In this document: positions 1 through 35,690 of the stretch, piece after piece | How positions within the stretch are numbered: the stretch's first letter is position 1 | Layout of the letters: each line of letters opens with the position of its first letter | Assembly (NCBI GenBank): GCA_964573135.1 | Contig: CAZNIO010000007.1 | Span: 117-64,116 of the forward strand | Direction of reading: 5' to 3' | Length of the DNA: 64,000 nucleotides | Source of the DNA: an uncultured Gammaproteobacteria bacterium | Lineage (GTDB): Bacteria > Patescibacteriota > Patescibacteriia > UBA2196 > GWA2-42-15 | The notes under the pieces: model-generated | What the model was told of the DNA's origin: nothing | Databases searched by the model: none | The model's input: the letters and a program-made list of their open reading frames with translations, nothing else | Made by a program: the position numbers and the translations under genes

Positions 1-3000
1 ATTACCTCTCCTGCTGACGGCTCTTCCGGTGAATCGAAAAATGTTGTCCTCAGAATTACCATTGATCAGCCAGGTACAGTTAAATTTTATGATGACGGTC
101 AAGAATCAGCCAGCCTAATATTTAGTCAAACTGGCTCATTCTCATATACTTATTTAGACATGACTCGCACTACACATGTGTTCAAAGCCAGTATAACCAA
201 TAGTAATGGCACTGACCATGATTCTATTACCTATACCGTTCAGGAACACTCAGGCGAGGATCTAGCCATTTCGATTATTCAACCTCAAAATGGTGATTCC
301 GGCACAGGCAAGCGAGTAGCTATAAGATATAATATAAATAAAAATGGATCTATCTATTTTTATGAAGGCAATAATCTACTTGGCACTGACGCCAAAGGCT
401 CTTCTGGAAATTATTTCTATCGACTTCCCGAACTGCCAGCCGGTCAATACACTTTTAAGGTTAAGCTTGTAAACCTTACTGCTGGTACAGTCGAAGATTC
501 AGTCATCTATACTATTTTAGAAGAAAATGACCCCAATCCTGACCCTCCCACCATCTCTATCGACTCCCCAGCTTCTGGCATTTCAAGTACTAACAAAAAC
601 CCAAAGATATATTACACTATTTCACAACCAGGTAAGGTTAGATTTCATGATGGTGACGCTGGCGTGTACCAAACACAAAAAACTGCCGGTAGCCACATCT
701 ATTACTTCTCCAACCTTACTCCGGGTACTCACACCCTAAGGCTAGTTGTCAGTAATGACAATGGTACGTCTAACGATTCAATTACCTATATAGTTACTCA
801 GGAGGAAGAACCGCCAGTCATCACATCCAGTCAGGGGACTATTCTGGTTAAAAAAGATTCCTCTCTTTCTTCTTACGCACAAACATTAAGTCAACACAAA
901 AATTGGAATTTACTTGAGACAACATCTACTGATGCTGGTGCTATCAGAAATCAAATAATAAATCTATACAACCAACAACCATTTAAATTTTTATTAATTC
1001 TTGGTGATCATACTCAAATCCCCGTTTACGATCAAAGTCTATTACGTGAGTATGTTACTTCAACTGGCTTTGGCCATAATGGTAGCATCTTGGCCAAAGA
1101 CAAAAATGTGCTAGATGGCTTATACTACGGTAGTATTGATCAAGATATCGATATCGAACTCAGTGTTGGCCGTCTACCTTTTAATAATAGTTCTGATCTA
1201 GAACAATATTATTCAACTTTTCCTAACAGTAAATCAATATCAAAGATTAATGTAATTAGCCATGTAGCTGGGGGCATTCCTCATACTGGTTTTCTATCGC
1301 CACAGCTCAATCAATATCAAGTAACAAATTTTGAAGGTGTTAGTACCACTGATGTCTTTAATAGTAACCTGATTGCCAGTGATCTTCTTTATTCATATAG
1401 TCATGGCACATCCGCCTCATTAGATATTGGGCAAACATACACTCAAAACAACATTCCTGGTCTTACTAACCACCCGCTTGTTATTGGGGAAGGCAACATC
1501 GCCGGCAGTGAACTTGGTCTAGAGTTTGTTAAAAAGGGAGCCTTGGCCTATCTGGGATATTATATATCTCCCGAAATCACTGGCCTTGCCTTGCTTGACC
1601 AGCCGTCTAATAAGACCACTTTTGGTGAGACTATAAAACAAGTTAACAACTATTATACTCTCTACCAAACAATTTCTCCAAGTCCCAGATCTTCCTACTA
1701 CTATATTGGTGATCCATCACTTGGGGTTAATTTTATAACCACAAATCATACTGCCTTCTCAAGGCAGGGTGATGAGATGGAAGTTCGTGTTCCAGGTATG
1801 ACAAAGCATAGTTTTGTAGACGATAATGACAACCAAGTCGTTAATCTATATACCACCTATACCTATCAATTCCAGTCCACCCAATCAACTTATGATCTCT
1901 TAAGGAAGAATCCTCCTTATGAGACAAATAACCAAATATTAATTAAGTGTGATCCATCCGTTGAAACTGGTTTTCTGTTGCCATGTCAAGATATAGCAAG
2001 CACTTATTCAGACAGCCCATACCAACATGCGGTGGTCTTTAGTAAATCAGTGCTCTCAGATAGGGGTACTTATAGTAAATACATAATAAGGATTGACGAC
2101 GAATTTAATCCTCAAAATATATATCAAAAAATAAATGGTGAGTTAATTTTTCTTAATAACTATCTATCTGAAGTTAAAGAAATCGACGACGAATTTTATC
2201 TTATAATCTATGAGCCCAATCATATTCTTTTTGAGGACATCAACAGCGGTAAAAATTCGAATCCAAAAACTTTCGTAGTTTCGCAAGAAGAAATCAGCAC
2301 AAATGCACCATCTTTGACCATTGATGGCCCCGCTTCCGGTACCACCAGTATAAATCCAAATCCAAAAATTTACTATAATATATCCCAGCCAGGCAATGTT
2401 TCATTTTTTGATGGCGATGCCGGTGCAGAGCAGGCCCAGAAAAATGCTGGTAACCACACCTATTATTTCTCTAACCTTACCCCAGGTACTCATACCTTAA
2501 ATCTAACCGTTAATAATGATAACGGATCATCCCGTGACTCTATCCAATATATAGTTGGTCAAGCCAATGCTAATACCACACCCGATGATGAATCCGATAC
2601 ACCCGATGACCAAAACCAAGACGAGGACAATAACCAGGATAATAATCAAGAGCAAGATGAAGACATTGACGATGACACGCAAGACAATGAGGACAGCACT
2701 CCACCCCCAGCTCCTGGACCCGAAGTTTCCATCACTGCTCCTCAGAATGGTTATGCCAGCGAATCAACTAATATTAAATTACGCTACACCCTTAGTCAAT
2801 CAGGCTCTGTAATCTTCTGTAATAATAGTGCTTGTAGTTCGCCTGTTAGTATGCCCAGCGGAAACCGTGCTCATAAATTTAGTAACCTTAGTTTCGGTTC
2901 GCATGTTCTAAAGGTTATTATTTCTAATGCCAAGGGCCAAGCACAAGATTCAATTAACTATTCTGTTATAAACACACCAAAAATAGAGCTACCACCTTCA

Positions 3001-3798
3001 GTAATAATTACCTCTCCCAAAAACAGATCTTTAGGCAACGCCAGCAGTCTCGTTGTTAATTATGCTATTATTACCCCTGGCAATCTAGAATTTTTTAAAG
3101 ATAACACTCGCGTTGCACAAGAGAGGGCGATTAAATCAGGTTTTTTCTCATATACTTTTAATAATCTCGCTCCTGGGCTCCATACTTTAAAAATTAAAAT
3201 ATCGAATAGCGCTGGTAGTCAAGAAGCTTCAATTCTTCATACCGTTAAAACATCCGCCACCTCAAGTATTCCGCCAAGTACAACTTCTAATGATGATCTT
3301 TCTAAGAGATTATCAGGCCGATTCTTATTAGCCACTCAAGATAATGGTAAAATATATTATGTAAATCCTACTAACCTTAAAAAATATCAAATTACCCTTG
3401 GCAATATGCAAACACTTTTGGCTAGCTTAGCTACCGGCATTACTAATGCTAATATTAATAGAATACCTATTCATCCAGACTCTGTTTCAAACAACGTAGA
3501 CAGCGATGGAGATGGCTTTAATGATTACCAAGAGGTTGCTTATGGTTACAACCCAGACATTCCGTCTTTGCCCGGCAAGCGCGGTAACGATAAAGTTCGC
3601 CCTGATTTTAACTTTGCTAATGCCATGCGAGGTAAAATCTTGATGCAAATTGAAGATAGAGGTAGGCTTCATTATGTAGACATGACCGGTAAGCGCTGGG
3701 AAATTAAATGGCAAAACGCCTTGGATATTTTTAGAAAGTTAGCTCTTGGTATCACCAATGATAATCTATCAAAAATCACAGATATTCAGAGCAACTAA
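1..3798 (+). CDS. Giant secreted/surface protein, 5'-partial. The reading frame is open from nt 1 and the listed Met160 is internal. It carries tandem ~90-aa Ig-like repeats, an acidic D/E/N/Q-rich linker, a TSP3-like DxDxDG loop and two C-terminal ~55-aa conserved modules.
   Basis: Frame 1 has no stop from nt 1 to 3798. The upstream segment (ITIDQPGTVKFYDDG...SFSYTYL) is another copy of the internal ISQPGKVRFHDGDAG...YYFSNLTPGTHTL repeat. The C-terminal GRFLLATQDNGKIYYV...LGNMQTLLASLATGITNANINRIP and GKILMQIEDRGRLHYV...LALGITNDNLSKI modules are also present in the next gene. Confidence 0.8.
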   Translation: MTSPADGSSGESKNVVLRITIDQPGTVKFYDDGQESASLIFSQTGSFSYTYLDMTRTTHVFKASITNSNGTDHDSITYTVQEHSGEDLAISIIQPQNGDSGTGKRVAIRYNINKNGSIYFYEGNNLLGTDAKGSSGNYFYRLPELPAGQYTFKVKLVNLTAGTVEDSVIYTILEENDPNPDPPTISIDSPASGISSTNKNPKIYYTISQPGKVRFHDGDAGVYQTQKTAGSHIYYFSNLTPGTHTLRLVVSNDNGTSNDSITYIVTQEEEPPVITSSQGTILVKKDSSLSSYAQTLSQHKNWNLLETTSTDAGAIRNQIINLYNQQPFKFLLILGDHTQIPVYDQSLLREYVTSTGFGHNGSILAKDKNVLDGLYYGSIDQDIDIELSVGRLPFNNSSDLEQYYSTFPNSKSISKINVISHVAGGIPHTGFLSPQLNQYQVTNFEGVSTTDVFNSNLIASDLLYSYSHGTSASLDIGQTYTQNNIPGLTNHPLVIGEGNIAGSELGLEFVKKGALAYLGYYISPEITGLALLDQPSNKTTFGETIKQVNNYYTLYQTISPSPRSSYYYIGDPSLGVNFITTNHTAFSRQGDEMEVRVPGMTKHSFVDDNDNQVVNLYTTYTYQFQSTQSTYDLLRKNPPYETNNQILIKCDPSVETGFLLPCQDIASTYSDSPYQHAVVFSKSVLSDRGTYSKYIIRIDDEFNPQNIYQKINGELIFLNNYLSEVKEIDDEFYLIIYEPNHILFEDINSGKNSNPKTFVVSQEEISTNAPSLTIDGPASGTTSINPNPKIYYNISQPGNVSFFDGDAGAEQAQKNAGNHTYYFSNLTPGTHTLNLTVNNDNGSSRDSIQYIVGQANANTTPDDESDTPDDQNQDEDNNQDNNQEQDEDIDDDTQDNEDSTPPPAPGPEVSITAPQNGYASESTNIKLRYTLSQSGSVIFCNNSACSSPVSMPSGNRAHKFSNLSFGSHVLKVIISNAKGQAQDSINYSVINTPKIELPPSVIITSPKNRSLGNASSLVVNYAIITPGNLEFFKDNTRVAQERAIKSGFFSYTFNNLAPGLHTLKIKISNSAGSQEASILHTVKTSATSSIPPSTTSNDDLSKRLSGRFLLATQDNGKIYYVNPTNLKKYQITLGNMQTLLASLATGITNANINRIPIHPDSVSNNVDSDGDGFNDYQEVAYGYNPDIPSLPGKRGNDKVRPDFNFANAMRGKILMQIEDRGRLHYVDMTGKRWEIKWQNALDIFRKLALGITNDNLSKITDIQSN

Positions 3799-3804
3799 AG
3801 CCCA

Positions 3805-3832
3805 TTGACAATTTTTATATTTTCATTAAAAT
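3805..3832 (+). promoter_or_regulatory. Putative sigma70-like promoter: -35 TTGACA (3805-3810), 16-bp spacer, -10 TAAAAT (3827-3832), ~40 nt upstream of the 3873 start codon.
   Basis: The hexamers and spacing were read directly from the sequence. Confidence 0.35.
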
Positions 3833-3872
3833 TAAATAATTTATTAATTCTTATATAACTAAACAAAAATAT

Positions 3873-6800
3873 ATGCGAAATATCTATTTTTCCAGTAGAA
3901 AAGTCCTCATTTGTGGGGTAATTTTGGCTATGCTTAGCCAAATTTTTGCCTTCACTCCTTTGCCGGCTAAGGCCAACATCTTGGGTGATATAGATGATAA
4001 TGGTCAGATACAAACATATGATGCTGCTCTTATTACTCAATATGTGGCTAGTATCATTGATTTTACCGATGCCCAGAAGGTGGCAGCTGATGCCAATGGC
4101 GACGGTAAAATCAGTAGCTTAGATGCCCATGTCATCGGGGATTATGCCGTTGGCAACATTACCAGTCTGCCCGCTCATTATCTTCAATATACCCAAGACG
4201 ATTCAACGACCGATGACTATTTTGCATATTGTGATGCACCTACAGACTGTGTATCATCCACCAATAGTTGCTACAACTCAGATACCAATCCATGGCCAAA
4301 ATATATCTGTAAATCAGACGGTAGTCCAGGGGTTGGTAAATGGTATAGCTGTGCTGACTCATCTCATCTTGGAAAAGAGGTTATGGGATATACTTGTCAG
4401 GAGCAGCCAGACGGTAGCTACGCCTGGATGGTAGCTAGCTTATTAAAACCAGACTTAACTATAAAAGACTTTAGCTGGCGACCAGCAAGTCCGTTGGTTG
4501 GTGAAAGCGACCCATATCTTTATGTTGATTTTACCGTTACAAACAAAGGCAGTCAGCCAATATCACTCAATGGCACCACATATTCTCTCTATCGTAATAA
4601 TACCAGTGATCTCATTGCCGAGTTGTTTGCTGAGAAAAATCAACCAACACTTCAGCCAGGAGAAACATACACCTATCAAAATTTGACCACCACACAAAAC
4701 TCTGGCATTAAAAACATAGCAGGGACTTTTAACCTTATAATGAAGGCTGATTCAGAAAATATTATTGTTGAATCAAATGAAAATAATAACACTCTAACAA
4801 AAACACTTGTTGTTGGCGAGCAAGGGCAATTACCAGATTTATTACCAGATTTAATTGTTAAAAATATTAAATTTAATCAAAAATGGAGCATTTGGGATAA
4901 TGTTCTTACTGCAGAAGTATGTAACCAAGGCTTGGCCACAGTTTCGGGAAAGCAACTCTCAACAGAATTTAAATTAATGGACATTGTTAGGAATCACGGA
5001 ATGTCTCAGACACTTGATCCAGGAAGCTGTCATGAAGTTTTTATCGTCTTGTCTGGCTTTAATATATCAAATTTAAGTAAAGGGTATTATGACGTAACTG
5101 TTACTGCGGATACAGACAACATTACTTCAATATATGATAATCTTGTTGAAGAATCCAACGAAAATAATAACTCTACTAGCGCCAGACTATATTTTGATAT
5201 TCCAGATATTCACAAACCCGATCTTAAAATTGAGAATTTTAAATTTACTGATTTGAGAATTAATAAATCAGGTTGGGACGTCCAAATTTCATTTGATTTA
5301 GTTAATGCTGGTTCAGTTGCACCAAGTAGCGATTTTAAAATTATAATTGAAAATTTAACCGCCAATAAAGTTCTTAAAAATGAAAATTATGCCCATGGAT
5401 ATTTCATACCAGGTCATCGACAAAAAGTATACACTGTTGGTAATGTGGGTGATGGCTTTACGGCCGGTAGCAATACCATCAGAATTAAAATTGATTTAAA
5501 TAATACAGTTGATGAATCCAATGAATCAAATAATACTCTTTTAAAAACAATTAATCTTCCTGCCAGCTTCTATTATCTACAATATACCAGAGACGATGGT
5601 ACCACTGCTCCATATCATGCTTATTGTGGCCAGCCTACCGATTGTGTCTCCTCAAGTAATGATTGCTACGACTCAGGTACCCGGCCCTTCGCTAATAAAA
5701 GATATATTTGCCAATCAGATACTTCAAATAGTGTTGGCAAGTGGTACAGATGTGCTGACTCAACTCATGCTGGTAAAACAGTCATTGGCTATACCTGCCA
5801 AAAGATGTCTAATGGAGCTTATGGTTGGGAGAAGGGCACTAATAAACCCGATTTAGTTGTTAGGGAAATTAATTATAACGATGGTTATGTGGGCGCCAAG
5901 GTATGTAATGATGGTACAGCCAAAACAGAAAGTTATAGTTCCGCAGGCCTCTTTCTTGGCAACAACTATTTTATGGGAGACTTACTTATTTCCCCGCTTG
6001 ATCCAGGTAAATGTAGTGAGGAATCAGCCATGAGAGTTACTAATTATGGATATGATAATCAGACAGTGGAAGCCAAGGTGGTGGCAGATTATTATAATAA
6101 AGTTGATGAATCTAATGAAAACAATAATACTTTAACCAAAACAATTACTATTATAGACTCCACAAATAAACCAGACCTAGTAATTAATGATGTATATTTC
6201 ACGCCCTTTGATCCCGCCGCAGGTGAAGTATTCGATGGCCAAGTGCTCATTGAGATTGAAAATCTCGGCAAAGTCGCAGCTAAAAATTTCCCTGTGGTTG
6301 TAGTCTTATCAAGTAATTGGATATTGCTTGATTGGCACGATAATCATCAACGTAAAACCGTTGATTATATCGGCAGTCATGCTACTAAGGTAATTGCTTT
6401 TGATGTTAAAGATAACTTTGTTTTTCAAAATAAACCACTTGAACTTCGTGCTTGGGTGGATAGTAACGGTGTTCTCTATTCAGGTAATGATTTAGAGAAT
6501 TTAAAAAATGATGATTTATTTATTGATGAATCGAATGAGAATAATAACACTTTTCTTAAGAAGTTAACTCTGCCCAATGATCCGGGAAAGCAAATAACAC
6601 TTAATAATTCAACATATACTCTTAACCCATCAAGCCTTACTCAAGGTATGACTGACGGGGCCGGGAATGTTGATTTTAAAGCAAATATTATTCAAAAAGG
6701 AGAGGCCAGAATGTATGGTTTCAGCGCTTTCGGTTATGGGGAAGGATTTCCAACTTATGCTACTCTTGGCACCGCAAGCGGCGGAGCGCAACCTGGCAAT

Positions 6801-9098
6801 TATACAGTTAAGCGATATTTCAATGATGATGTATTATCGGCCGATGGTGAGCTCCCCAGATTATATTCTGGTTATTTACCCATCGCTATATTTCATGGAA
6901 ATGGCAGGGGAGACGATCCGAAATTAAGATTTGATATGAATCTTACCGTTAATCCGCCATCTCTCTTCGAAGAACCAAAGCTCACAGTTTCTGCCACTAA
7001 TCCTCTCTCTCAACAAGTTGTACCAGGCACTAGCGATGTTAATTTAGGAAACTTCGTCTTTGACGCAGTTAGCTCAAGTCAAGACATTCGAGTAACAAGA
7101 GTTGATTTTAATCAACTGGTCTCTCGAGCAGGTACCCTATATAATATATCCATGCTCAAATTATTCGATGGGGATACCGAGCTTAATTCAAGTAGCGACC
7201 CAGACCCAATGGGCAATGGTTATTGGGCTACCAGTACCTTTGCTTTTTCTTCACCACTGATTATCACAAAAGGTACCGTCAAAAATTTAACCCTTAGAGG
7301 CAATATATCTAGTACGGCTAAGGATGGAGACACCCATCAATTTATCATTAATACTAATAATAATATTACGGCCAATGATAATGATTCAGGTGATACAGTC
7401 AAAGCCAATGGAGCTTATCCTCTTAACGGAACCCAACTCATCGTTGGCGCAGGTAAATTATCCATCAGTAGAAGTGATACTCTAAAAGATTCTCTTCTCA
7501 ACGGTAATACCACTGGAGTTACTATTGGTAAATTTAAAGCCCAAGCCTCAGTTACTGATATAAATATTGAGAAGTTGTATCTTGATTTTAGCCCATATCA
7601 TGGTGGTGGCACAGATGAGTTAACCGGCGTTTATCTTTATGATGGTGCCACTCAAATCGCTGAAAGCACCATTACTTCCTCAAATGCTCAAACCCTGGTC
7701 TTCAATATGGGCCATTCCCCACTTACCGTTCCAGCTGATACTGCCAAAGAATTAACCATCAAGGTTGATACATCCATGATCGATAAAAGTGGTGTAGCCA
7801 CAACTGGTACTCCGTTTGAAGGCTTCACGCCAAGCATTAAGGGTAGTTCAATTGTTGCCAAGGAGACTTCTGGCAGAGCTATTCAAGTAGAAAATAATAC
7901 CATAACTTTCCCTAACTATATTTTAGTCAAGTCTCAACCAACTATTACTAAAAGTAGTGCTTATGATGACGGCATAACCAGTAATGGCACCTATGATCTG
8001 ACCGACGTTACTGTGTCTGCCGATTCAAAAGGCCCCGTTGGTCTTTATAAAATGACTTTTGACATACATACCACCAATGTTTCATTAAGTGACTTTGGTA
8101 TTTATGAGGGCAATCTCCTAGTGGCCAACGAGGCAGATGGCGCTACTGACGGTATTAATATAACAGTTGTTGATGCCAACCATAGTATAGTTGAAGTTTA
8201 CTTCAACTCTGGCGATAGCCTGGATGGCAGAGCGAGGACAATACCTGCCGGCACATCTAAAGTTTATACCTTAAAAGCCAGTGTTCTGGGTTATCAATCC
8301 AATGTGGCAAATGGAACTGAAGCCCGTATATTAAGTGATGACAACTTTGCTACCACAACCCATTCATTAAATGCTTCAGAAGTTGACGCTAGCAGTTATG
8401 ATAATTTTATCTGGTCAGACTTATCTTACGGCAACACATCAACTACTGCCACTACAACCAAACAATGGCTCAATAGTTATTTAGTTAGAGGTTTATCTAA
8501 GGCATCTAGTGGTGGTGGCGGTGGAGGAGGTACTCCAGTACCAATCCCAACACCGACGCCGGATATTCCACTTCCAACCCCAGACCCTACACCGCCAACC
8601 AGTATCGCCAAGCGTCTTGCTGGACGCCTCCTATTGGCCGTTGAAAACAAAGGACGCATTCACTATGTTTATCCAATCGACCTTAATCGATATGAAGTTA
8701 CCTTTGGTAATGTTATGAAACTTTTTGAAGATTTATCTTTAGGTATTTCCAATGATAATCTTTACCAAATCCTTGTCAATCCAAGTTCAGAAAGCGCCGA
8801 TAGCGATCGAGACGGCGATGGCTTCAGTGATAAGGAAGAAGCAACTAATGGTTATAACCCAGACGTTGCATCAGATCCAACCAATCGCGGTAATGACAAA
8901 ATAAAGGCCAACACCGTATTATCAAATAGACTTATCGGCAGGCTGCTAATCCAAGTAGAAGGCCATGGTCGTATTTGGTATGTTGACCAGTCTGCCAAGC
9001 GCTGGGAAGTTACCTTTGGTAACGTTATGAATCTGTTTACTTCCTTAGCCCTTGGTATTACCAATGATGATCTTGATAAAATTCCAGCTGGTAACTAA
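3873..9098 (+). CDS. Giant secreted multi-domain protein (1741 aa). It has a signal peptide, an N-terminal dockerin-like double Ca-binding repeat, at least 6 CARDB-like repeats ending in a D/E-ESNExNNT motif, two ~85-aa Cys-rich modules, a beta-rich central region, a Gly/Pro-Thr linker, two C-terminal ~55-aa modules and a TSP3-like loop.
   Basis: N-terminus MRNIYFSSRKVLICGVILAMLSQIFAFTPLPAKA. DIDDNGQIQTYDAAL...DANGDGKISSLDAHV resembles dockerin. VDESNENNNTL/ESNESNNTL motifs recur 6 times, as in Pfam CARDB. YxAYC..PTDCVSS.N.CY.S....W.CADS.H.GK...GYTCQ occurs twice. The C-terminal KRLAGRLLLAVENKGRIHYV... and NRLIGRLLIQVEGHGRIWYV... modules match the previous gene. Confidence 0.85.
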   Translation: MRNIYFSSRKVLICGVILAMLSQIFAFTPLPAKANILGDIDDNGQIQTYDAALITQYVASIIDFTDAQKVAADANGDGKISSLDAHVIGDYAVGNITSLPAHYLQYTQDDSTTDDYFAYCDAPTDCVSSTNSCYNSDTNPWPKYICKSDGSPGVGKWYSCADSSHLGKEVMGYTCQEQPDGSYAWMVASLLKPDLTIKDFSWRPASPLVGESDPYLYVDFTVTNKGSQPISLNGTTYSLYRNNTSDLIAELFAEKNQPTLQPGETYTYQNLTTTQNSGIKNIAGTFNLIMKADSENIIVESNENNNTLTKTLVVGEQGQLPDLLPDLIVKNIKFNQKWSIWDNVLTAEVCNQGLATVSGKQLSTEFKLMDIVRNHGMSQTLDPGSCHEVFIVLSGFNISNLSKGYYDVTVTADTDNITSIYDNLVEESNENNNSTSARLYFDIPDIHKPDLKIENFKFTDLRINKSGWDVQISFDLVNAGSVAPSSDFKIIIENLTANKVLKNENYAHGYFIPGHRQKVYTVGNVGDGFTAGSNTIRIKIDLNNTVDESNESNNTLLKTINLPASFYYLQYTRDDGTTAPYHAYCGQPTDCVSSSNDCYDSGTRPFANKRYICQSDTSNSVGKWYRCADSTHAGKTVIGYTCQKMSNGAYGWEKGTNKPDLVVREINYNDGYVGAKVCNDGTAKTESYSSAGLFLGNNYFMGDLLISPLDPGKCSEESAMRVTNYGYDNQTVEAKVVADYYNKVDESNENNNTLTKTITIIDSTNKPDLVINDVYFTPFDPAAGEVFDGQVLIEIENLGKVAAKNFPVVVVLSSNWILLDWHDNHQRKTVDYIGSHATKVIAFDVKDNFVFQNKPLELRAWVDSNGVLYSGNDLENLKNDDLFIDESNENNNTFLKKLTLPNDPGKQITLNNSTYTLNPSSLTQGMTDGAGNVDFKANIIQKGEARMYGFSAFGYGEGFPTYATLGTASGGAQPGNYTVKRYFNDDVLSADGELPRLYSGYLPIAIFHGNGRGDDPKLRFDMNLTVNPPSLFEEPKLTVSATNPLSQQVVPGTSDVNLGNFVFDAVSSSQDIRVTRVDFNQLVSRAGTLYNISMLKLFDGDTELNSSSDPDPMGNGYWATSTFAFSSPLIITKGTVKNLTLRGNISSTAKDGDTHQFIINTNNNITANDNDSGDTVKANGAYPLNGTQLIVGAGKLSISRSDTLKDSLLNGNTTGVTIGKFKAQASVTDINIEKLYLDFSPYHGGGTDELTGVYLYDGATQIAESTITSSNAQTLVFNMGHSPLTVPADTAKELTIKVDTSMIDKSGVATTGTPFEGFTPSIKGSSIVAKETSGRAIQVENNTITFPNYILVKSQPTITKSSAYDDGITSNGTYDLTDVTVSADSKGPVGLYKMTFDIHTTNVSLSDFGIYEGNLLVANEADGATDGINITVVDANHSIVEVYFNSGDSLDGRARTIPAGTSKVYTLKASVLGYQSNVANGTEARILSDDNFATTTHSLNASEVDASSYDNFIWSDLSYGNTSTTATTTKQWLNSYLVRGLSKASSGGGGGGGTPVPIPTPTPDIPLPTPDPTPPTSIAKRLAGRLLLAVENKGRIHYVYPIDLNRYEVTFGNVMKLFEDLSLGISNDNLYQILVNPSSESADSDRDGDGFSDKEEATNGYNPDVASDPTNRGNDKIKANTVLSNRLIGRLLIQVEGHGRIWYVDQSAKRWEVTFGNVMNLFTSLALGITNDDLDKIPAGN

Positions 9099-9200: not shown

Positions 9201-10061
9201 TCAAGTTTGTATTCTGGACTTATGGGTTTCTTTTTTTAGTAAAATAGTTGAACCAATTATTAGTACGCCTCCCAAGGCCATATTCCACGTCAGCAGTTCT
9301 CTGAAAAAAATCAGTGCAAAAATCAAAGCACTCACCACTTCTAAATATGCTAGAAGTGATGCGGTTGATGCTTTTATTTGTTGCATGCCTTTAAAAAATA
9401 GCCCAAAACCTGCTAGCCCGATTAGTGGTGCATATATAGCTACTGTTACTCCGACTTGGGTGATTGATGGCAGGGGATTCCAAAATAGAAATGGCAGGAA
9501 TATAAAGGGTGCTACTAGGTTTTGATAAAAAACCGTTTCTTGCCATGAGTGGGTTTTAAGCCCCTTTTTAAACATAATCAGTGAAAGTGCAAACAAGATA
9601 GCCGACAAAAGCATTGAACTCATGCCTAAAAAATCCATATTGCTAAAGTTAAATTCCTGATTAATGTATATTAATATAATTCCTGAGAAAGCTATCAATA
9701 GCAAAAGTACATTTCTTTTTGATATTTTTTCTCCTATTATTAGCCATCCAAATACGGCAGCAAAAATTGGCCAAGTATAATCCATTATTACCGCATTGCC
9801 TATTGATGTATATGTAAATGCCACGAAATAGAAAAACATCCTTATGGCGTTCAGTGCTGAAGCTCCCAGCATCAACTTGGTATTTCCCTTAAATATTTTT
9901 ATTTTTTTAATTAAGAAATAAATTAAAAGAATTAAAAAAGGCACCACCGTCCTAAAAAAGGTCATCGTCGTTGGTGCCAGACTCAAATATTTAATAAATA
10001 CCCCCGCTGATCCCCAAATTATGGCTGCCAGAGCTACTTCTATGTATGGGTTAAACCTCAT
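9201..10061 (-). CDS. EamA/DMT-family permease (10 TM), paralog 1 of 3.
   Basis: Two EamA-like halves with hydrophobic helices throughout; similar in length and pattern to the ORFs at 13932-14774 and 16584-17450. Confidence 0.7.
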   Translation of the reverse strand: MRFNPYIEVALAAIIWGSAGVFIKYLSLAPTTMTFFRTVVPFLILLIYFLIKKIKIFKGNTKLMLGASALNAIRMFFYFVAFTYTSIGNAVIMDYTWPIFAAVFGWLIIGEKISKRNVLLLLIAFSGIILIYINQEFNFSNMDFLGMSSMLLSAILFALSLIMFKKGLKTHSWQETVFYQNLVAPFIFLPFLFWNPLPSITQVGVTVAIYAPLIGLAGFGLFFKGMQQIKASTASLLAYLEVVSALIFALIFFRELLTWNMALGGVLIIGSTILLKKETHKSRIQT

Positions 10062-10064
10062 ATA

Positions 10065-10370
10065 TTATTTTACAAATTCTACTTTTAAATCATATCCAAA
10101 AACGCTGGCTATTTTGCGTAAAGTCCCAGTGGTAAAATTTTGACGGCCTGCTTCCATGCGAGCCACATTGCTTTGTTTTGTGCCAATTTTATGAGCTAAT
10201 TCAGATTGCGACATTCTGTTTTCTTTTCTTAATTCTAATATTTTGTAAGCAATTTCAAGCTGTTTGCCATACTCGTCATAATATTTTTTTATTTTAGGAT
10301 CCTTTAATTGTTCTTCAAGGTAATCTTGGAAATTGAGTATTTTTTTATCTGGTTGTTTTTTTCTAGCCAT
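10065..10370 (-). CDS. HTH XRE-family antitoxin (HigA-like).
   Basis: The HTH motif MSQSELAHKIGTKQSNVARMEAGRQN. It overlaps the upstream toxin gene by 8 bp. Confidence 0.75.
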   Translation of the reverse strand: MARKKQPDKKILNFQDYLEEQLKDPKIKKYYDEYGKQLEIAYKILELRKENRMSQSELAHKIGTKQSNVARMEAGRQNFTTGTLRKIASVFGYDLKVEFVK

Positions 10371-10746
10371 ATATTTGTGCGTTGTTTAATGTGTCTATAT
10401 AATTTTCAGTGGCTTTCTTTATTTCTGCAAGGGGAGTTTTATTAGTTTTCTTTAGAAAAGCATGCAGTAGAATAACATTTTTTCCTACAAGAGTAAAATA
10501 GAATATACTATGATGGTTGCGACTAAAATCAATTCTTAATTCCCTAATTTTACCCTTAATATGCTTAGCATAAGGTTCATCTAAATACCCTTTATGTATT
10601 TGCAAAAACTCGATATATTTTAATACTTTTGCTTTATTTTTACTATCAAGCTTCTCAATATATTCTAAAACAGGAATCTTCTTTGTAACGGAACTCTGAT
10701 AAAATTTTACTTTATAATTTGAGCTCCCGTTATTATTATATATCAT
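10363..10746 (-). CDS. RelE/HigB-like toxin of the Gp49 (DUF891) family.
   Basis: The FYFTLVGKNVILLHAFLKKTNKTPLAEIKKA C-terminal signature shared with the 19242-19559 ORF. The toxin-first, XRE-antitoxin-second order is typical of HigBA. Confidence 0.65.
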   Translation of the reverse strand: MIYNNNGSSNYKVKFYQSSVTKKIPVLEYIEKLDSKNKAKVLKYIEFLQIHKGYLDEPYAKHIKGKIRELRIDFSRNHHSIFYFTLVGKNVILLHAFLKKTNKTPLAEIKKATENYIDTLNNAQIYG

Positions 10747-25726: not shown

Positions 25727-26917
25727 ATGAGCCTATTACCCAGTAAAAAAAGTTATCTTGGTATTGATTTGGGGACTTCCGCTATTAAAATAGTGGAACT
25801 ACAGAATAAAAATGGTCGGGCTGTACTACTTACCTATGGTTATGTTGAGCAACCAACAGACATTGTCCGCTCATCATCCTCTGAGATGGAAGAAAGAATT
25901 GTCGAGATCGTTAAAAGCATCTGCCAAAAAAGTCGTACCACCTCAAAAAAAGTAATTGCTGCCTTACCCAGCTTTTCGGTTTTTACGTCAATTATCAGCC
26001 TGCCTGCCATGAAAAAGAAAGACCTCCATCAGGCTATCAAATGGGAAGCCAAAAAATTTATACCCCTACCCATTGAAGATATGGTACTTGATTGGAAAAT
26101 TGTACCGCCAGAGGGGAGTCAACATACGGCTCAAACTCCCAAAGCAGATCACAAATCCGAGAAAAAGGACGAGTCCAAAAAAGAGGGGTCAGACAAGGAA
26201 GAAGATTCATCCTCTAATCCACTTTCTAAACTTTTTAAAAAAGACCATTCAGATAAGGAAACCAAATTAAAAAAGGAAGATCAAAATCTTAAAATACTTT
26301 TAACCGCTGCTCCTAAAACCTTAGTTGAAAGATATCTGCGCATTTTTAAATCAGCTGGGTTGGAGATTGTGAGCTTGGAAACTGAGTCCTTTGCCCTTGA
26401 GCGCTCTTTGCAAGGCGGTGACCCCGCTCCAGTTATGATCATCGATATCGGTGCTGTCTCCTCAGATATTGTTGTTATCAATAACGGTATTCCCATTCTT
26501 AACAGAAGTATTGATGTCGGTGGTGTAACTATCACCAAAGCTATCATGTCTAGCTTAAATGTTGATATTACTCGAGCAGAGCAGTTTAAGCGTGACATTG
26601 GTTTTTCTGATTTAGGTGAAGATAATTTGCCAAATGTCATTAAAACATCCATCAGCCCAATTATTAATGAAATCAAATATTGCTTAGACATCTATTTATC
26701 TCAAGCTGGTACCAATAATATTGAAAAAATTATTCTAACCGGTGGTAGCTCATGGTTGCCCGATCTAGCTAAGCATTTAAGTAAAATTTTAGACGTTAAG
26801 GTTATTATAGGAGACCCATGGGATAGAGTAGTTTATCCCCTTGAATTAAAACCCGTTTTAAAAGAGCTAGGACCGCGCTTCTCTGTAGCCGTTGGTCTAG
26901 CTATGCGGGAAATGTAA
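25727..26917 (+). CDS. pilM: Type IV pilus assembly protein PilM (actin-like ATPase fold) with a ~55-aa K/E/D/S-rich low-complexity insertion.
   Basis: YLGIDLGTSAIKIVELQ phosphate-1 motif; first gene of a pilMNO order; insertion KADHKSEKKDESKKEGSDKEEDSSS. Confidence 0.85.
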   Translation: MSLLPSKKSYLGIDLGTSAIKIVELQNKNGRAVLLTYGYVEQPTDIVRSSSSEMEERIVEIVKSICQKSRTTSKKVIAALPSFSVFTSIISLPAMKKKDLHQAIKWEAKKFIPLPIEDMVLDWKIVPPEGSQHTAQTPKADHKSEKKDESKKEGSDKEEDSSSNPLSKLFKKDHSDKETKLKKEDQNLKILLTAAPKTLVERYLRIFKSAGLEIVSLETESFALERSLQGGDPAPVMIIDIGAVSSDIVVINNGIPILNRSIDVGGVTITKAIMSSLNVDITRAEQFKRDIGFSDLGEDNLPNVIKTSISPIINEIKYCLDIYLSQAGTNNIEKIILTGGSSWLPDLAKHLSKILDVKVIIGDPWDRVVYPLELKPVLKELGPRFSVAVGLAMREM

Positions 26918-26918
26918 T

Positions 26919-28028
26919 ATGTTCGATAATATAGACAAAAAAGCCAAAGATATTGAGGAAGAAAGTGGAATTAATCTTCTGCCCAGTGATATGCGACCCA
27001 AAAAGGAGAAGGTTAGACACGAGCACCTGCCCAGCAAAGATGCTGCTGATTTTCATATTCCTGAAAAAAAAATAAAGCCGCTCACACCACACATAAAACC
27101 TCAGCCCAAAAAAGAAAAAAAACCTAAAGTTAAAAAACCTGGTTTTTGGAGTAAGTTTTTAGCCAAGCGTAAGCGCAAGAAAGCCGAAAAGAAATTTAAA
27201 AAGATAATGGCCCAAAAGAAAATTCAAGCAATCAACAAGAAGAGAAAAAAGAAGAAACCAGCCGTTGTTCCAGGTAATATTGCCCCGCCCCAACCTAAGC
27301 CCCCTGCCGCTCCTCATTTTCAGCACAAGCTGTTAGATCCCCCAGTTAAGCAGGATTTTGAAAAACCCATTATTTCCAAACCAGCTGATGACTATAGTCA
27401 GATAAAATTAAGTCATGCCAAGCCTCTGCCTCAGGAAGATGATGAGCTGGATGTTAATCTACTGCCCCCAGAAAAACAGCTTCCTTCAGGCAAAAAAATG
27501 GCTACCCGCTACGCGCTAGCCGCTCTAATCGCTGTAGCTATAGTCGCCTTGCCATATATTTTTTTCCAGGCCAAAAAAGCAGGCCTTATTAAACAGGCCA
27601 ATGATTTAAAAATTCAGATAGAATCTGTTGAAAAAGAAATGCTGAAAACGAGTGACCTCATTAAAAAATTTGGGCCATTAGTTGATCGCCTCGATACCCT
27701 CGGCGTTTTACTCGACAACCACATCTATTGGAGTCGTCTCTTCCCCATTTTAGAAAAACACACAGCTCAAGGAGTATACTTCACCGATCTTTCAATCAGT
27801 CCCCAAACACAAATTATTTTAACTGGCAAAGCGCGCAATATACGTTCATTGGCCGAAGAACTTGTTGTTCTCAAAAATGGTGATGCCTTTACCGACGTCA
27901 CTTTGTCCTCTCTGCGCCTGCCAGAAATCGGAAAAGAGGAAGAGGGTAAAATTCCTACCGTAGATTTTACTATTTCTTTTACACTTGACAGCAAAATTAT
28001 TAATTTGTTACAGCTAGAAGAGGAATAA
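26919..28028 (+). CDS. pilN: PilN-like inner-membrane pilus assembly protein with a ~190-aa Lys/Pro-rich N-terminal extension.
   Basis: Single TM helix (YALAALIAVAIVALPYIFF) followed by a coiled-coil periplasmic domain; sits between pilM and pilO; basic KKPK/KRKKK repeats at the N-terminus. Confidence 0.65.
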   Translation: MFDNIDKKAKDIEEESGINLLPSDMRPKKEKVRHEHLPSKDAADFHIPEKKIKPLTPHIKPQPKKEKKPKVKKPGFWSKFLAKRKRKKAEKKFKKIMAQKKIQAINKKRKKKKPAVVPGNIAPPQPKPPAAPHFQHKLLDPPVKQDFEKPIISKPADDYSQIKLSHAKPLPQEDDELDVNLLPPEKQLPSGKKMATRYALAALIAVAIVALPYIFFQAKKAGLIKQANDLKIQIESVEKEMLKTSDLIKKFGPLVDRLDTLGVLLDNHIYWSRLFPILEKHTAQGVYFTDLSISPQTQIILTGKARNIRSLAEELVVLKNGDAFTDVTLSSLRLPEIGKEEEGKIPTVDFTISFTLDSKIINLLQLEEE

Positions 28029-28029
28029 T

Positions 28030-28647
28030 ATGGATCATCAGTCACACAACAAGAATAATAATGATAAGAAGATAGTTTGGTATATTAAGTATTTTAAACC
28101 CCTTATCATCATCATCCCCTTACTCATCTTGGTGGCTGGCTATTTTGTTTTTTTACAGGACGTTTACGGAGAGTATAATCAATCTAAAAGCTATATAGGA
28201 GAAAATCAAAATCAGCTCCAAGCTAAAAAGGCCCAGTTACTTAGTCTTAACAAAGTTCATCAAGGCTTTAAGGATATTAGCCTGGCTGACCGCGCTCGAG
28301 TAGCCGATATTCTACCGGAAACAATTGACGAGTCCAGCCTTTACGTCAATATTGAAAAACTTATAACCGACCCAGGCGTGACTGGTCAACTGGAAGATGT
28401 TTTCGTCAGCCCATATAAAGAAGAGAATACCAGAAAGAAAAAGGATAAATCAGCTCTTGATCTCTTGTCAGCCAAACTGAATAAAGCCAACGTTAGTTTG
28501 TCCGTTTCCAGTATAAACTATATTAATCTTAAAGTTCTTTTTGAACTTATTGAAAAGAATATTAGACTTTTTGATGTTAAGTCATTTTCATATACTGCCA
28601 AAGACGGCGAGTTAGAAATTATGATGATGGCCTATTTTTTAGAATAA
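28030..28647 (+). CDS. pilO: PilO-like pilus assembly protein (TM helix plus coiled coil).
   Basis: TM helix LIIIIPLLILVAGYFVFL followed by a helical periplasmic region; position in the operon. Confidence 0.6.
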   Translation: MDHQSHNKNNNDKKIVWYIKYFKPLIIIIPLLILVAGYFVFLQDVYGEYNQSKSYIGENQNQLQAKKAQLLSLNKVHQGFKDISLADRARVADILPETIDESSLYVNIEKLITDPGVTGQLEDVFVSPYKEENTRKKKDKSALDLLSAKLNKANVSLSVSSINYINLKVLFELIEKNIRLFDVKSFSYTAKDGELEIMMMAYFLE

Positions 28648-28660
28648 AATCAAAACCCTT

Positions 28661-28954
28661 ATGAAAGGCATGTCCAAAAAGAAAATAATAATTTATGTGT
28701 CACTGTTTGCTGTTATTATTGCAGCTAATATTTACTATTACATATCAACCACCAATTCAGGTGAAAAGCAAGATACTACTTCAAGCGTAGCCCTAGAACT
28801 TGCAGTATCTCAAATGTCTGATCAGGGGGAAGCACAAAAAAGGCAGTCTGTTTTAGAGCACGACCTTTTCCGCGAGCTTGAAAAGCTGGGTGAATGGCCG
28901 GTTGTTCCCAACCAGGTTGGTCGCGCTAATCCTTTTCTTCCCTTCTTTGAATAA
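28661..28954 (+). CDS. Small membrane-anchored protein inside the pilus operon (unknown, possibly PilP-like).
   Basis: TM helix IIIYVSLFAVIIAANIYYYI; located between pilO and pilB. Confidence 0.4.
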   Translation: MKGMSKKKIIIYVSLFAVIIAANIYYYISTTNSGEKQDTTSSVALELAVSQMSDQGEAQKRQSVLEHDLFRELEKLGEWPVVPNQVGRANPFLPFFE

Positions 28955-28962
28955 TATATTAT

Positions 28963-30696
28963 ATGAAAAAGCCTGAAGAAGCCAAAGAGCAACTTTTACA
29001 CTATTTTGTAAAAGCAAATAAAGTTGACAATAAGCTTGCCAAAGAACTCGGCCAAGAGAAACAACTGGTCGATCTCGAGGCCAAGCTTATCACCCAAGCT
29101 AAGATATCAGAAGAAGAAATCGCCCGAGCCAAGGCGTCTCTTTTTAATTTGTCCTTTCTTGCTCTAAGCGACCAGAAAATTCCCATGGAGGTTTTAGACA
29201 TTTTGCCAAGAGAGCTAGCTGAAAATTATGGCATGGTTGCCTTTGGTAAACAAGATAATATTATCAGTATTGGCTTAGTCGACCCCACCAACCTAAAAGC
29301 GCGTGAAGCCGCTGATTTCGTAGCTCGTGGTAAAAATTTAAAAACTGAATATCATCTTATTACTAAAACTGCCCTGCACCGCGCTTTGCAGCAATATGGC
29401 AGTTTGAAACTGGAAGTTGGTGAGGCCCTTGAAATGGCCAAAGACAAATTTGGAGAAGGCAGACAGGTTATTGATGAAAAAATGGAAAAGGTCATCAAGT
29501 CAGCCCCTATCTCAAAAATGGTTGCCGTCATTTTAAAACACGCCGTTGAATCACGTGCTTCAGATGTCCACATTGAGCCAACCACAGAAGAAACACATGT
29601 GCGCTATCGCGTTGACGGCAGACTTAAATTATCTTTAGTTTTACCCAAATACGTACACGCCGCTATTATTTCGCGTATCAAAGTCATGTCTAACCTGCGT
29701 ATTGATGAAACCCGCATTCCCCAAGATGGCAGGATCAGGCTCAACATTGGTGGCAGTAACATTGATTTTCGTGTTTCCACTCTCCCTCTATATAGCCAAG
29801 AGAAAGTGGTTATGAGAATTTTAGATACTTCTGGTGGTGTCTCCACCTGGGAAGAGCTTGGTTTCGAAAGCCACAATTTAGAGATAATGAAAAAGAATAT
29901 TAAAAAACCTCATGGCCTATTTCTAGTTACCGGCCCCACTGGTAGCGGTAAATCCACTACCCTGTATGCCGCCTTGCAAATCTTAAATAAAGAAGAGGTT
30001 AATATTGTCACCCTCGAAGACCCAGTCGAGTACTACTTAAAAGGGGTTAATCAGTCTCAGGTCAGACCAGCAGTCAAATTCACCTTTGCTTCAGGTTTAC
30101 GCTCTATCCTGCGTCAAGATCCAGATATTATCATGGTCGGCGAGATCAGGGACGCTGAAACTGCTGAATTGGCCATTCATGCCGGTTTGACAGGTCATAT
30201 TGTTCTCTCTACCTTGCATACCAATGATGCTTTTGGCGCCATTCCGCGTTTAATTGATATGAAGATTGAACCATTTTTAATCTCATCTACCTTAAATATT
30301 GTAGTTGCTCAAAGATTGGTCAGAAGTATTTGCCCTAAATGTAAGGAAGAATCAGAGCTACCGCCCACCACGCGCCAGGAAGTTGAAGAAATTTTTACAA
30401 GCATCCCGTCAAAAAATTTGCCACAAGGTATTACTAAGGAAAGCTTGAGCAAAGTATATCGCGGTAAAGGATGTCCTCATTGTAATCAGACCGGCTACAA
30501 GGGCCGATCAGCTATTGCCGAAGTTCTTGAAATTAATGATGAGATTAAGGATGTTGTTAATTCTGGTTTTAAGTTAAGTACTATCAAAGAAATGTTTATA
30601 AAACAAGGCATGCTTAGCTTAAAACAAAACGGCTTAGTCAAAGTGCTTGAGGGTAGAACTACTATTGAAGAAATCCTAACAGTTACCAAGGATTAG
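28963..30696 (+). CDS. pilB: Type IV pilus assembly ATPase PilB/GspE (extension ATPase).
   Basis: Walker A GPTGSGKST, Asp box VTLEDPVEY, Walker B DIIMVGEIRD, His box LSTLHTN, tetracysteine CPKC...CPHC, and an N-terminal GspE_N domain. Confidence 0.93.
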   Translation: MKKPEEAKEQLLHYFVKANKVDNKLAKELGQEKQLVDLEAKLITQAKISEEEIARAKASLFNLSFLALSDQKIPMEVLDILPRELAENYGMVAFGKQDNIISIGLVDPTNLKAREAADFVARGKNLKTEYHLITKTALHRALQQYGSLKLEVGEALEMAKDKFGEGRQVIDEKMEKVIKSAPISKMVAVILKHAVESRASDVHIEPTTEETHVRYRVDGRLKLSLVLPKYVHAAIISRIKVMSNLRIDETRIPQDGRIRLNIGGSNIDFRVSTLPLYSQEKVVMRILDTSGGVSTWEELGFESHNLEIMKKNIKKPHGLFLVTGPTGSGKSTTLYAALQILNKEEVNIVTLEDPVEYYLKGVNQSQVRPAVKFTFASGLRSILRQDPDIIMVGEIRDAETAELAIHAGLTGHIVLSTLHTNDAFGAIPRLIDMKIEPFLISSTLNIVVAQRLVRSICPKCKEESELPPTTRQEVEEIFTSIPSKNLPQGITKESLSKVYRGKGCPHCNQTGYKGRSAIAEVLEINDEIKDVVNSGFKLSTIKEMFIKQGMLSLKQNGLVKVLEGRTTIEEILTVTKD

Positions 30697-30733
30697 TATG
30701 GGAGGATTTAGTAATTAATATTTTTTAAATTAT

Positions 30734-31804
30734 ATGTCACAAGCCAGTCTAATATTCAATAGAATACTCAACTCCAGCATTACTCAAGGTGCATCATATA
30801 TCCACCTCGAATCGGGTAACAAGCCGACCCTGCGCATTGCCGGTCGCCTCAAAGGCCTTGAAGATGAATCCGTTGTTGATGGAGACTTTATTACAGAAAT
30901 TGTTAAAATTATTCTCTCGGCCGACCAGCAAGAAGAACTTGAAAAAAATAAATCAATTATTGTTGTCCACAATTTTGAAGGCGGTATGCGCTTCAAAATT
31001 AATATTTTCTACCAAAAAAGTAGCCTGGCTATGATATTTAAGTATCTTCCAGCTGAAATTAAAAAATTAGTTGATCTTGGTTTGACTGACCAGTTTATAA
31101 AACTTCTTAATAAAAAGAAGGGTCTCATTTTAGTTACCGGACAGCACGGTTCTGGCAAAGCCTCTACCTCCGCTTCAATGTTAAACCACATTAACACCAA
31201 TGCTTCACGTTATATCATAACTATTGAAAATCCAATTCAATATATTATTCCTCCATCCAAAAGTATTATTGATCAAAGAGAGGTTGGTAAGGATACCCTT
31301 AGCTTTGAGAAAGCCATCAGTTTTGCCGAAGAAAGTGATGCTGACATTGTCTTTTTATCAGAAGTCAATAATGCTAAGTCTTTAGAAAAAGCCATTGATC
31401 TTATCGACAGTGGTCGTCTAGTAATCGCTGTTGTTGAAGCCCCTTCTGCCGCCGATTCCATTGAACATCTTATAAATTTAGTGGCTGATACTGAAAGATC
31501 TAAGCATCGTCAAATCATCTCGAATCTTCTACTTGGTACGCTTGTTCAAAGGCTTATCCCTAGAAGAGGCGGAGGACAAATCGTTGTCCTCGAACTTTTA
31601 ATTGCCAATCCTGCCGTCAGCTCTTTAATTAAAGAAGGTAAGCACGCTCAATTAAGCAGTATTATTCAAACTTCGCGTGACGAGGGCATGCGCACCCTTG
31701 ATCAGTCTCTTATTGAGCTGGTACACACCGGAGAAGTGGATGCCAAAGACGCTCTGCCAGTGGCCACTGATAAAATAGGGTTTCAGGCCGCCGTTCAAGA
31801 ATAG
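30734..31804 (+). CDS. PilT/PilU-like ATPase paralog with degenerate catalytic motifs (probable pseudo-ATPase).
   Basis: Collinear with PilT, but Walker A is GQHGSGKAS (Ala after the Lys), the Asp box EDPIE is ENPIQ, Walker B DIILVGEMRD is DIVFLSEVNN, and the His box TLHT is VVEA. Confidence 0.7.
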   Translation: MSQASLIFNRILNSSITQGASYIHLESGNKPTLRIAGRLKGLEDESVVDGDFITEIVKIILSADQQEELEKNKSIIVVHNFEGGMRFKINIFYQKSSLAMIFKYLPAEIKKLVDLGLTDQFIKLLNKKKGLILVTGQHGSGKASTSASMLNHINTNASRYIITIENPIQYIIPPSKSIIDQREVGKDTLSFEKAISFAEESDADIVFLSEVNNAKSLEKAIDLIDSGRLVIAVVEAPSAADSIEHLINLVADTERSKHRQIISNLLLGTLVQRLIPRRGGGQIVVLELLIANPAVSSLIKEGKHAQLSSIIQTSRDEGMRTLDQSLIELVHTGEVDAKDALPVATDKIGFQAAVQE

Positions 31805-31807
31805 TTT

Positions 31808-33013: not shown

Positions 33014-33150
33014 TTTATTAGTTATTTTATGCTATAATACAACTGTGGATAAAATTTATCTTAAAAATTAAATATTGCAAAGGTCGAAATATTGTAATAG
33101 ATCTAGCTAGATTTATTAGTTAACTAGTATAAATTAAAAAGAAAATTCCT

Positions 33151-33621: not shown

Positions 33622-33649
33622 TCTGGAAGATTTTCACTGTTAAGTTTGA

Positions 33650-33676
33650 ACCCCCCGATATATCGGGGGGTTTTTG
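33650..33676 (+). terminator. Rho-independent terminator after the pilin gene.
   Basis: aaccccccgatatatcggggggttttt. Confidence 0.7.
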
Positions 33677-33744
33677 TTTTGCTTAAAATGGAAGAATAAA
33701 ACTAATATTATGTTTTTTTTACTTTTTCATGATATAATATAGTT

Positions 33745-34566: not shown

Positions 34567-34575
34567 TTAAAGACA

Positions 34576-35130: not shown

Positions 35131-35136
35131 CTCATT

Positions 35137-35685: not shown

Positions 35686-35690
35686 CTCCT

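Follow-up and report, generated by a model that had tools for sequence, protein, structure and literature searches.

A secreted 1741-residue protein beside polA in a Patescibacteria genome joins dockerin and CARDB domains to two undescribed modules

What use does a bacterium belonging to the candidate phyla radiation (CPR) have for a very large secreted protein that begins with a dockerin and carries no enzyme? The question is raised by a gene near the start of a 64,000-nucleotide stretch of contig CAZNIO010000007.1 (assembly GCA_964573135.1), here called the window. An earlier reading made from the sequence alone (the sequence-only reading) had flagged positions 3873-6560 for a dockerin, CARDB repeats and duplicated Cys-rich modules. 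We find that the 1741-residue product is a secreted multi-domain surface protein which joins dockerin and CARDB domains to two undescribed modules, one with six cysteines and one at the C-terminus (Table 1). The features named for the flagged range are indeed located there and exceed chance by far; however, that range stops about halfway through the gene, and the C-terminal half, which probably determines how the cell holds the protein, had been missed. Secretion, also claimed at that time, is borne out by one uninterrupted open reading frame (ORF) of 1741 residues plus stop and by a typical Sec signal peptide, MRNIYFSSRKVLICGVILAMLSQIFAFTPLPAKA, which has an h-region hydropathy of 2.8 and an AKA cleavage motif followed by N at the start of the mature protein. 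By sequence reading, the signal peptide has no lipobox.

Directly behind the signal peptide, Pfam Dockerin_1 (PF00404) matches residues 37-88 with 38.6 bits when the whole protein is scanned (cutoff 22.9), so that the proposed N-terminal type I dockerin stands. When the isolated 100-residue N-terminal segment is scanned, the score is 45.3 bits (E 1e-11) over profile positions 1-52 of 57. Dockerins are defined by two segments of ~22 residues, each a 12-residue EF-hand-like loop and then a helix, which lie ~30-36 residues apart. The two Ca loops found here, DIDDNGQIQTYD (residues 39-50) and DANGDGKISSLD (residues 73-84), are spaced by 34 residues, and both place D or N in positions 1, 3 and 5, with G in position 6 and D in position 12. 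A loop spacing off the dockerin geometry, or a lack of significant dockerin or CARDB profile matches, had been named as grounds for rejecting the reading; the spacing is canonical, and both families score over their Pfam gathering cutoffs. Additionally, solved dockerins align along the full extent of residues 36-101, with both loops and both helices matched (E 1.9e-9 to 2e-3). Among them are the serine-protease dockerins of 8x3a (E 1.9e-9) and ScaB (4uyq_B, E 5e-8), together with 5nrk_B and 1daq.

The domain shares the ~65-residue duplicated F-hand module of cellulosomal type I dockerins (A. cellulolyticus ScaB, 4UYQ/4UYP; C. thermocellum CelS, 2MTE/1DAQ; the tandem serine-protease dockerins, 8X3A), but its setting differs from theirs. 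Most dockerins sit at the C-terminus of their protein, whereas this one is N-terminal, and its host is a CPR bacterium rather than a cellulolytic Firmicute. In a cellulosome the dockerin is carried by a catalytic or scaffoldin subunit; the 1741-residue protein is neither, as Pfam and NCBIfam scans (E <= 1) found no catalytic, carbohydrate-binding module (CBM) or cohesin family anywhere along its length.

The sequence-only reading held that the dockerin implies a cohesin-bearing partner, which proved to be an assumption. The Cohesin family has no match in the 42 ORFs of the window that were scanned (this protein, its upstream neighbour and the 40 other ORFs of at least 120 residues), although this negative is weak because most of the genome lies outside the 64-kb window. 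Non-cellulosomal dockerins without an identifiable cohesin are reportedly common. One published CPR protein offers a parallel: SEML1_0315 of the saccharibacterium Southlakia epibionticum is a dockerin-domain envelope protein that transposon sequencing (Tn-seq) found essential for epibiotic growth (Wang et al. 2023 Cell, PMC10633639). In that study it is speculated that SEML1_0315 is directed at glycans associated with the host cell, in order to adhere to them or degrade them (PMC10633639). Judged by its published description alone, SEML1_0315 resembles the present protein as a dockerin-bearing, envelope-associated CPR protein outside any cellulosome; it comes, however, from another CPR phylum, and the description gives no sign of CARDB, Cys or C-terminal modules of the kind seen here.

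A dockerin on a secreted protein could also point to the binding or scavenging of polymers. According to this explanation, the protein would bind an insoluble extracellular polymer (polysaccharide or detritus) instead of a host cell and, in the manner of cellulosome-like systems, would recruit dockerin- or cohesin-bearing enzymes to it. Dockerins are classically tied to polymer degradation, one mosaic relative described below (P0004) has a transglutaminase-core domain in the same scaffold, and other phyla without cultured members have been inferred to possess such systems (PMC8542988). In contrast, the protein itself has no CBM or enzyme domain, and the 64-kb window encodes neither a CBM nor a degradative enzyme. 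We therefore regard polymer scavenging as less likely than attachment and, taken by itself, as quite improbable.

The first of the two undescribed modules follows the dockerin and recurs in the middle of the CARDB array. The two copies had been called near-identical; they are a real duplicated unit at the proposed place, but they share only 62% protein and 66% DNA identity (BLAST E 4e-38), with six Cys at aligned positions. Nonsynonymous divergence (dN) between them is 0.30 and synonymous divergence (dS) is ~2.2, indicating an old duplication under purifying selection. Recent homogenisation by gene conversion was also considered and is ruled out by the 66% DNA identity and the dS of ~2.2. Structure prediction, which had been suggested as a check of the module, gave a confident AlphaFold model of a small all-beta domain with a predicted local distance difference test (pLDDT) score of 89.1.

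Neither the sequence nor the model of the Cys module resembles a known family. Pfam returned 0 families at E <= 10, NCBIfam and PHROGs returned none, and the best match in a profile search of PDB had an E of 0.56. Foldseek comparison of the model gave a best E of 0.95 in PDB, with template modelling (TM) scores of at most 0.26, and a best E of 0.79 in BFVD. The top Foldseek matches, to glucansucrase domain V and TcdA/TcsL repeats (glucan-binding or CROP-type hairpins), were set aside as insignificant (E ~1, TM <= 0.26). A word-indexed homology search with module 1 found nothing. Across 1.84 billion cluster representatives, an exhaustive hidden Markov model (HMM) search turned up no more than seven proteins: P0001, a fragment of this very protein; P0002-P0005, mosaic proteins with CARDB domains, each closed by the C-terminal module; P0006, a Cys-rich repeat protein of 287 residues with divergent copies; and P0007, a marginal match. 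In P0006, the Cys module is represented by its N-terminal half (...Y..Y.REDGSTA.Y..CC....DCVSS.G.CY..GTGPG.Y.C..DGRW...), repeated in three divergent copies, which suggests that the module, or at least its first hairpins, may exist outside CARDB proteins. A scan of JGI metagenomes yielded three copies of the locus of the P0003 type and nothing else. Viral contigs scanned with the Cys module and with two variants of the C-terminal repeat contained no relatives; together with the lack of PHROG matches, this leaves a phage origin, or descent from an endolysin wall-binding domain, unsupported. The composition of the module, with six invariant Cys and 15% aromatic residues, would fit a disulfide-stapled binding domain.

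The CARDB domains themselves are beyond doubt, with Pfam CARDB (PF07705) scoring 109.5 bits on the whole protein (cutoff 22.7) and matches reaching profile position 101 of 101. Their number had been put at six or more. Self-BLAST delimits five copies, which the Pfam segment scans recover as 3 + 2, and the motif ESNE[NS]NN occurs exactly five times (residues 300, 427, 548, 746 and 886); the count of at least six was thus an overcount. Like the CARDB arrays of other bacterial and archaeal surface proteins, this one consists of tandem copies of ~110-130 residues which end in E-x-N-E-x-N-N. Unlike the usual arrays, it is interrupted by the undescribed six-Cys module. By self-BLAST, copy 2 pairs best with copy 4 and copy 3 with copy 5, and copies 2 and 4 each carry a Cys pair with an identical spacing of 36 residues. 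These pairings suggest a segmental duplication of the whole unit of Cys module, CARDB, CARDB with two Cys and CARDB. The term adhesion domain is a Pfam label for CARDB, and a role of the CARDB copies in adhesion is putative here.

Behind the array, residues 905-1039 have no match in Pfam or PHROGs and no counterpart in the N-truncated relative P0002. The mid module of ~500 residues that comes next also exists on its own in relatives, as secreted proteins (P0028 and others, 47% identity), and within a protein of a Saccharibacteria metagenome-assembled genome (MAG).

The second undescribed module closes the protein. It consists of tandem domains of ~55 residues which flank a TSP3-like Ca repeat and are preceded by a Gly/Pro linker. 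The AlphaFold model (pLDDT 92.9; predicted TM score, pTM, 0.85) shows two compact beta3-alpha-beta-alpha units for which we found no Pfam match, no PDB sequence match and no PDB fold match by Foldseek. TSP3 (PF18884) scores 21.6-23.1 bits in this protein, under the cutoff of 25; of 17 proteins related to the C-terminal module, 11 have significant TSP3_bac matches next to it (best E 8e-15). An HMM of the repeat, run on the window translated in all six frames, picks out the module in the two adjacent giant proteins only, where the copies are 45% identical over 176 residues. The upstream giant, whose N-terminus lies beyond the window, has Big_3_5, Big_7 and PKD Ig-like repeats, an acidic low-complexity stretch and a central region of ~480 residues without a family. 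A gingipain/C25-like identity was considered for the centre of this ORF (..FLLILGDHTQIPVY..) and dropped, as neither Pfam nor a phmmer search of PDB supports it.

The company that the C-terminal module keeps is varied. It closes every one of the Cys-module relatives P0002-P0005, it is fused in P0027 (a fragment) to Peptidase_M23, a peptidoglycan hydrolase, and P0020 consists of a signal peptide and two C-terminal repeats only. The extra domain of lysostaphin and other well-studied M23 enzymes serves to target the cell wall. In the 1741-residue protein, the C-terminus (...LGITNDDLDKIPAGN, then stop) has no LPXTG motif and no hydrophobic tail or terminal transmembrane (TM) helix, and the anchor families SLH, LysM, PG_binding and CW_binding have no Pfam match. 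Because the module is joined to very different passengers, including a wall hydrolase, and no other anchor was found, we read it as a likely anchoring cassette for the cell's own envelope, probably its wall.

Table 1. Features of the 1741-residue protein, its gene and its upstream neighbour (positions in the window)
Feature	Position	Strand	Details
Promoter-like site TTGACA-16-TAAAAT, 11/12	3805..3832	+	sigma-70-like consensus match only; 40 nt 5' of ATG
Whole ORF	3873..9098	+	1741 aa
Sec signal peptide, aa 1-34, cut after AKA	3873..3974	+	sequence reading plus hydropathy
Type I dockerin, aa 37-100, Ca loops aa 39-50 and 73-84	3981..4172	+	Pfam Dockerin_1, alignment to solved dockerins
Cys-rich module 1, aa 102-185, 6 Cys, 15% aromatic	4176..4427	+	self-BLAST, profile search, AlphaFold
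CARDB 1, aa 190-315	4440..4817	+	self-BLAST, Pfam segment scans
CARDB 2, aa 320-440, Cys pair C350/C386	4830..5192	+	self-BLAST, Pfam segment scans
CARDB 3, aa 447-562	5211..5558	+	self-BLAST, Pfam segment scans
Cys-rich module 2, aa 567-652, 6 Cys	5571..5828	+	self-BLAST; 77% identity to P0002 module
CARDB 4, aa 658-760, Cys pair C678/C714, closest to CARDB 2	5844..6152	+	self-BLAST, Pfam segment scans
CARDB 5, aa 765-900, closest to CARDB 3	6165..6572	+	self-BLAST, Pfam segment scans
Orphan region, 135 aa, aa 905-1039	6585..6989	+	no detectable relatives
Beta-rich mid module, aa 1040-1546, three weak ~160-aa repeats	6990..8510	+	ends in YDNFIWSD...W..SY motif
Gly7 and Pro/Thr-rich linker, aa 1547-1576	8511..8600	+	sequence reading
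C-terminal module repeat A, aa 1576-1633	8598..8771	+	self-BLAST, profile search, AlphaFold
TSP3-type Ca-binding repeat, aa 1645-1660	8805..8852	+	below Pfam threshold in this protein
C-terminal module repeat B, aa 1681-1737	8913..9083	+	57% identity to repeat A
Upstream giant gene, at least 1265 aa, open from window edge	1..3798	+	Big/PKD Ig-like; C-terminal module nt ~3307-3795

In order to see which parts of the protein are conserved, we compared it with its positional orthologue P0002 (NCBI MFH1890611.1, 'MAG: CARDB domain-containing protein, partial', Candidatus Kuenenbacteria bacterium; GCA_043823865.1, contig JBDRTS010000051.1). The P0002 gene is convergent with polA as in the window, and the two polA genes are 78% identical in DNA. 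NCBI places Candidatus Kuenenbacteria within the Patescibacteria / Parcubacteria group, and this orthologue bears out the earlier claim of a CPR-like organism. The proteins are colinear at 38% identity over residues 262-668 and at 46% over residues 1033-1741, and share the CARDB array, one Cys module, the mid module, the linker and the C-terminal tandem module with its TSP3-type repeat. P0002 is truncated at its N-terminus by the contig end, and in this form has no dockerin match; any dockerin or first Cys module would lie in the missing part. It differs in having at least four CARDB copies ahead of the Cys module, and in a thrombospondin type 1 repeat (TSR)-like Cys motif and a domain of ~250 residues that replace CARDB 5 and residues 905-1039. 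This motif, YSWSVGDWS(A/T)CNNGKQTR.VECK...C, lies at residues ~690-745 of P0002 and ~555-610 of P0004, without a Pfam call at E <= 0.001 in either. P0004 combines its transglutaminase-core (protease-like) domain with an fn3 domain.

Identity to P0002 is unevenly distributed along the protein, at 81% in the C-terminal module, 77% in Cys module 2, 36% in the mid module and 27-41% in the CARDB copies. The high values point to constraint on the two unnamed modules, while the CARDB copies behave as a variable stalk. Strong conservation of the C-terminal module would also suit a ligand-binding head, and this leads to a model of opposite polarity. In a cellulosome-like arrangement, the dockerin would plug into a cohesin-bearing protein encoded elsewhere in the genome, and the C-terminal module would face outward and bind. 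As far as is known, proteins in every characterised cellulosome system attach to a cohesin through their dockerin, and the dockerin here is canonical in sequence. Several observations argue against this arrangement, beginning with the lack of a Cohesin match in the protein, its neighbour and the other ORFs of the window. Additionally, both P0003, a complete relative, and P0005, which is cut only within its signal peptide, lack a dockerin but keep the C-terminal module, and would be left unattached unless otherwise anchored. Finally, the C-terminal module also occurs on an M23 peptidase and on proteins made up of a signal peptide and the repeats, a pattern typical for cassettes that target the wall. 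We consider the reversed orientation, the main rival of the model favoured below, unlikely.

The site next to polA also differs between related genomes. It is occupied by a protein of 680 residues (P0003; loci L003 and L009-L011), by one of more than 1618 residues (P0002; locus L002) or by the 1741-residue mosaic. The position is thus a variable surface-protein locus that draws on one module set and ranges from 680 to 1741 residues. In the window, an EamA transporter gene and an HTH/Gp49 (HigB-like) pair (9201-10746) lie between the surface gene and polA as extra genes. The window itself is chromosomal, since it carries polA, two uvrA genes, uvrB, PPDK, groES/EL, a type IV pilus cluster and dprA.

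A look-up of the whole 1741-residue protein by exact match found no record other than a truncated variant. Contig k141_597386 of ENA ERZ27315495, an independent assembly of the same population, equals window positions 1509-6639 but for one base, a T to A change at window position 4517 (L004 position 3009) which turns codon 215 from TAT (Tyr215) into TAA. In ERZ27315495 the gene is called as two parts, a 214-residue product with signal peptide, dockerin and Cys module and a 672-residue remainder. The TAA is either a real nonsense allele or an assembly error.

The variation at this locus bears on whether the protein is a structural coat. Such a coat, S-layer-like or sheath-like, would involve no specific adhesion, and the dockerin and TSP3 would join neighbouring copies, or a copy and the upstream paralogous giant, into a lattice through contacts that depend on Ca2+. 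A coat would agree with the standalone secretion of the mid module in several relatives and its presence in a Saccharibacteria MAG, with two types of Ca-dependent module in one protein, with two adjacent giant genes that have one common putative anchor, and with the absence of a catalytic domain. However, the length of an S-layer protein usually changes little within a lineage, whereas the protein at this locus is a mosaic of 680 to 1741 residues, and the population may include a nonsense variant. A coat role is accordingly judged less likely than attachment, and we think it doubtful.

We favour, with roughly even confidence, a model in which the protein is anchored by its C-terminus and projected on a stalk, with the Cys modules and the dockerin at the distal end for contact with a partner cell or protein. 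In this model, a Kuenenbacteria-like CPR bacterium exports a modular, rod-like protein without catalytic function by the Sec route and displays it on its envelope; export through a cleavable signal peptide can be read from the sequence. The C-terminal tandem pair, bridged by TSP3, would fix the protein to the wall or envelope of its own cell, and may be an interchangeable anchoring cassette common to many surface proteins of the lineage. The stalk would consist of the five CARDB copies, which evolve fast, and of the beta-rich 'FIWSD' module, and would act as a spacer. At the far end, the two conserved disulfide-type Cys modules could act as ligand-binding heads, possibly for glycans, and the dockerin could make a Ca2+-dependent protein-protein contact, be it with a partner resembling cohesin or with some other component of the surface. 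Overall, the protein would serve attachment or cell-cell contact in an adhesin-like way, from a variable locus next to polA; the reading of the protein as an attachment protein (adhesin) is plausible, and that of a host-attachment scaffold putative.

Several points weigh against this model. The proposed anchoring role of the C-terminal module is drawn from domain architecture, and possible glycan binding by the Cys module from composition. A canonical dockerin marks the anchoring end rather than the free end of a protein, and therefore the polarity could be reversed, and the 64-kb window encodes no cohesin. P0003 does without a dockerin, which is therefore not essential to the family. Lastly, given the stop at codon 215, the full-length protein may be dispensable.

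The model can be carried further, although we would put little weight on the result. The six-Cys module may be a recognition domain of new fold, confined to a narrow Kuenenbacteria-like clade, that specifies the host or partner, and the dockerin may recruit further proteins through an unrecognised, highly divergent cohesin; together they may build a cellulosome-style 'adhesome' on a CPR cell, attached by a new class of wall anchor. We consider this extension a long shot.

Other features of the window were recorded alongside this gene. Type IV pilus genes, with DprA further on, are recorded for 25727-37103 (+) and 48784-49683 (+). The pilus genes encode PilM, PilN, a T2SSE/PilB ATPase, PilT-like and PilC-like proteins, a major pilin, several N_methyl minor pilins and a prepilin-peptidase-like ORF. 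The cluster and DprA fit the pilus and competence machinery described for Patescibacteria. Two close UvrA paralogues with UvrB adjoining occupy 37810-40629 (+), 43167-45734 (-) and 45805-47910 (-), and the second paralogue has no UvrA_DNA-bind match. Toxin-antitoxin-like genes comprise two AbiEii nucleotidyltransferase toxins (41019-41633, - strand; 61188-61913, + strand) and an HTH_3/Gp49 pair (10065-10746, - strand). A 64-bp direct repeat, identical at 58 of 64 positions (58284-58347 and 60550-60613), contains TGATATAAT and the palindrome TTAACAAAACTGTTAA. Its copies lie upstream of two ORFs, 58487-59500 (HATPase-like) and 60599-61180, the second of which is followed by an AbiEii toxin gene; from its sequence and placement, the repeat looks like a duplicated promoter-operator.

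Part of what we describe was known already. Dockerins, CARDB domains and mosaic giant surface proteins are familiar, also in CPR bacteria, and the orthologue already has a CARDB annotation. In such genomes, large mosaic surface proteins that carry dockerin or CARDB domains are to be expected, and the organism is uncultivated. The finding is a useful annotation and a lead rather than a surprise. New are the two undescribed modules with their models, their conservation pattern and the variable locus adjacent to polA. Each of the two unnamed modules comes with an alignment, a confident model and clear boundaries, and is ready for entry into domain databases and for expression in binding assays. 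Knowledge of how CPR bacteria (Patescibacteria) attach to their partners and recognise them is mostly limited to a few cultivated Saccharibacteria. Here, the locus supplies a concrete modular candidate, with a putative anchor cassette, a fast-changing Ig-like stalk, a conserved disulfide-type module and a bona fide dockerin.

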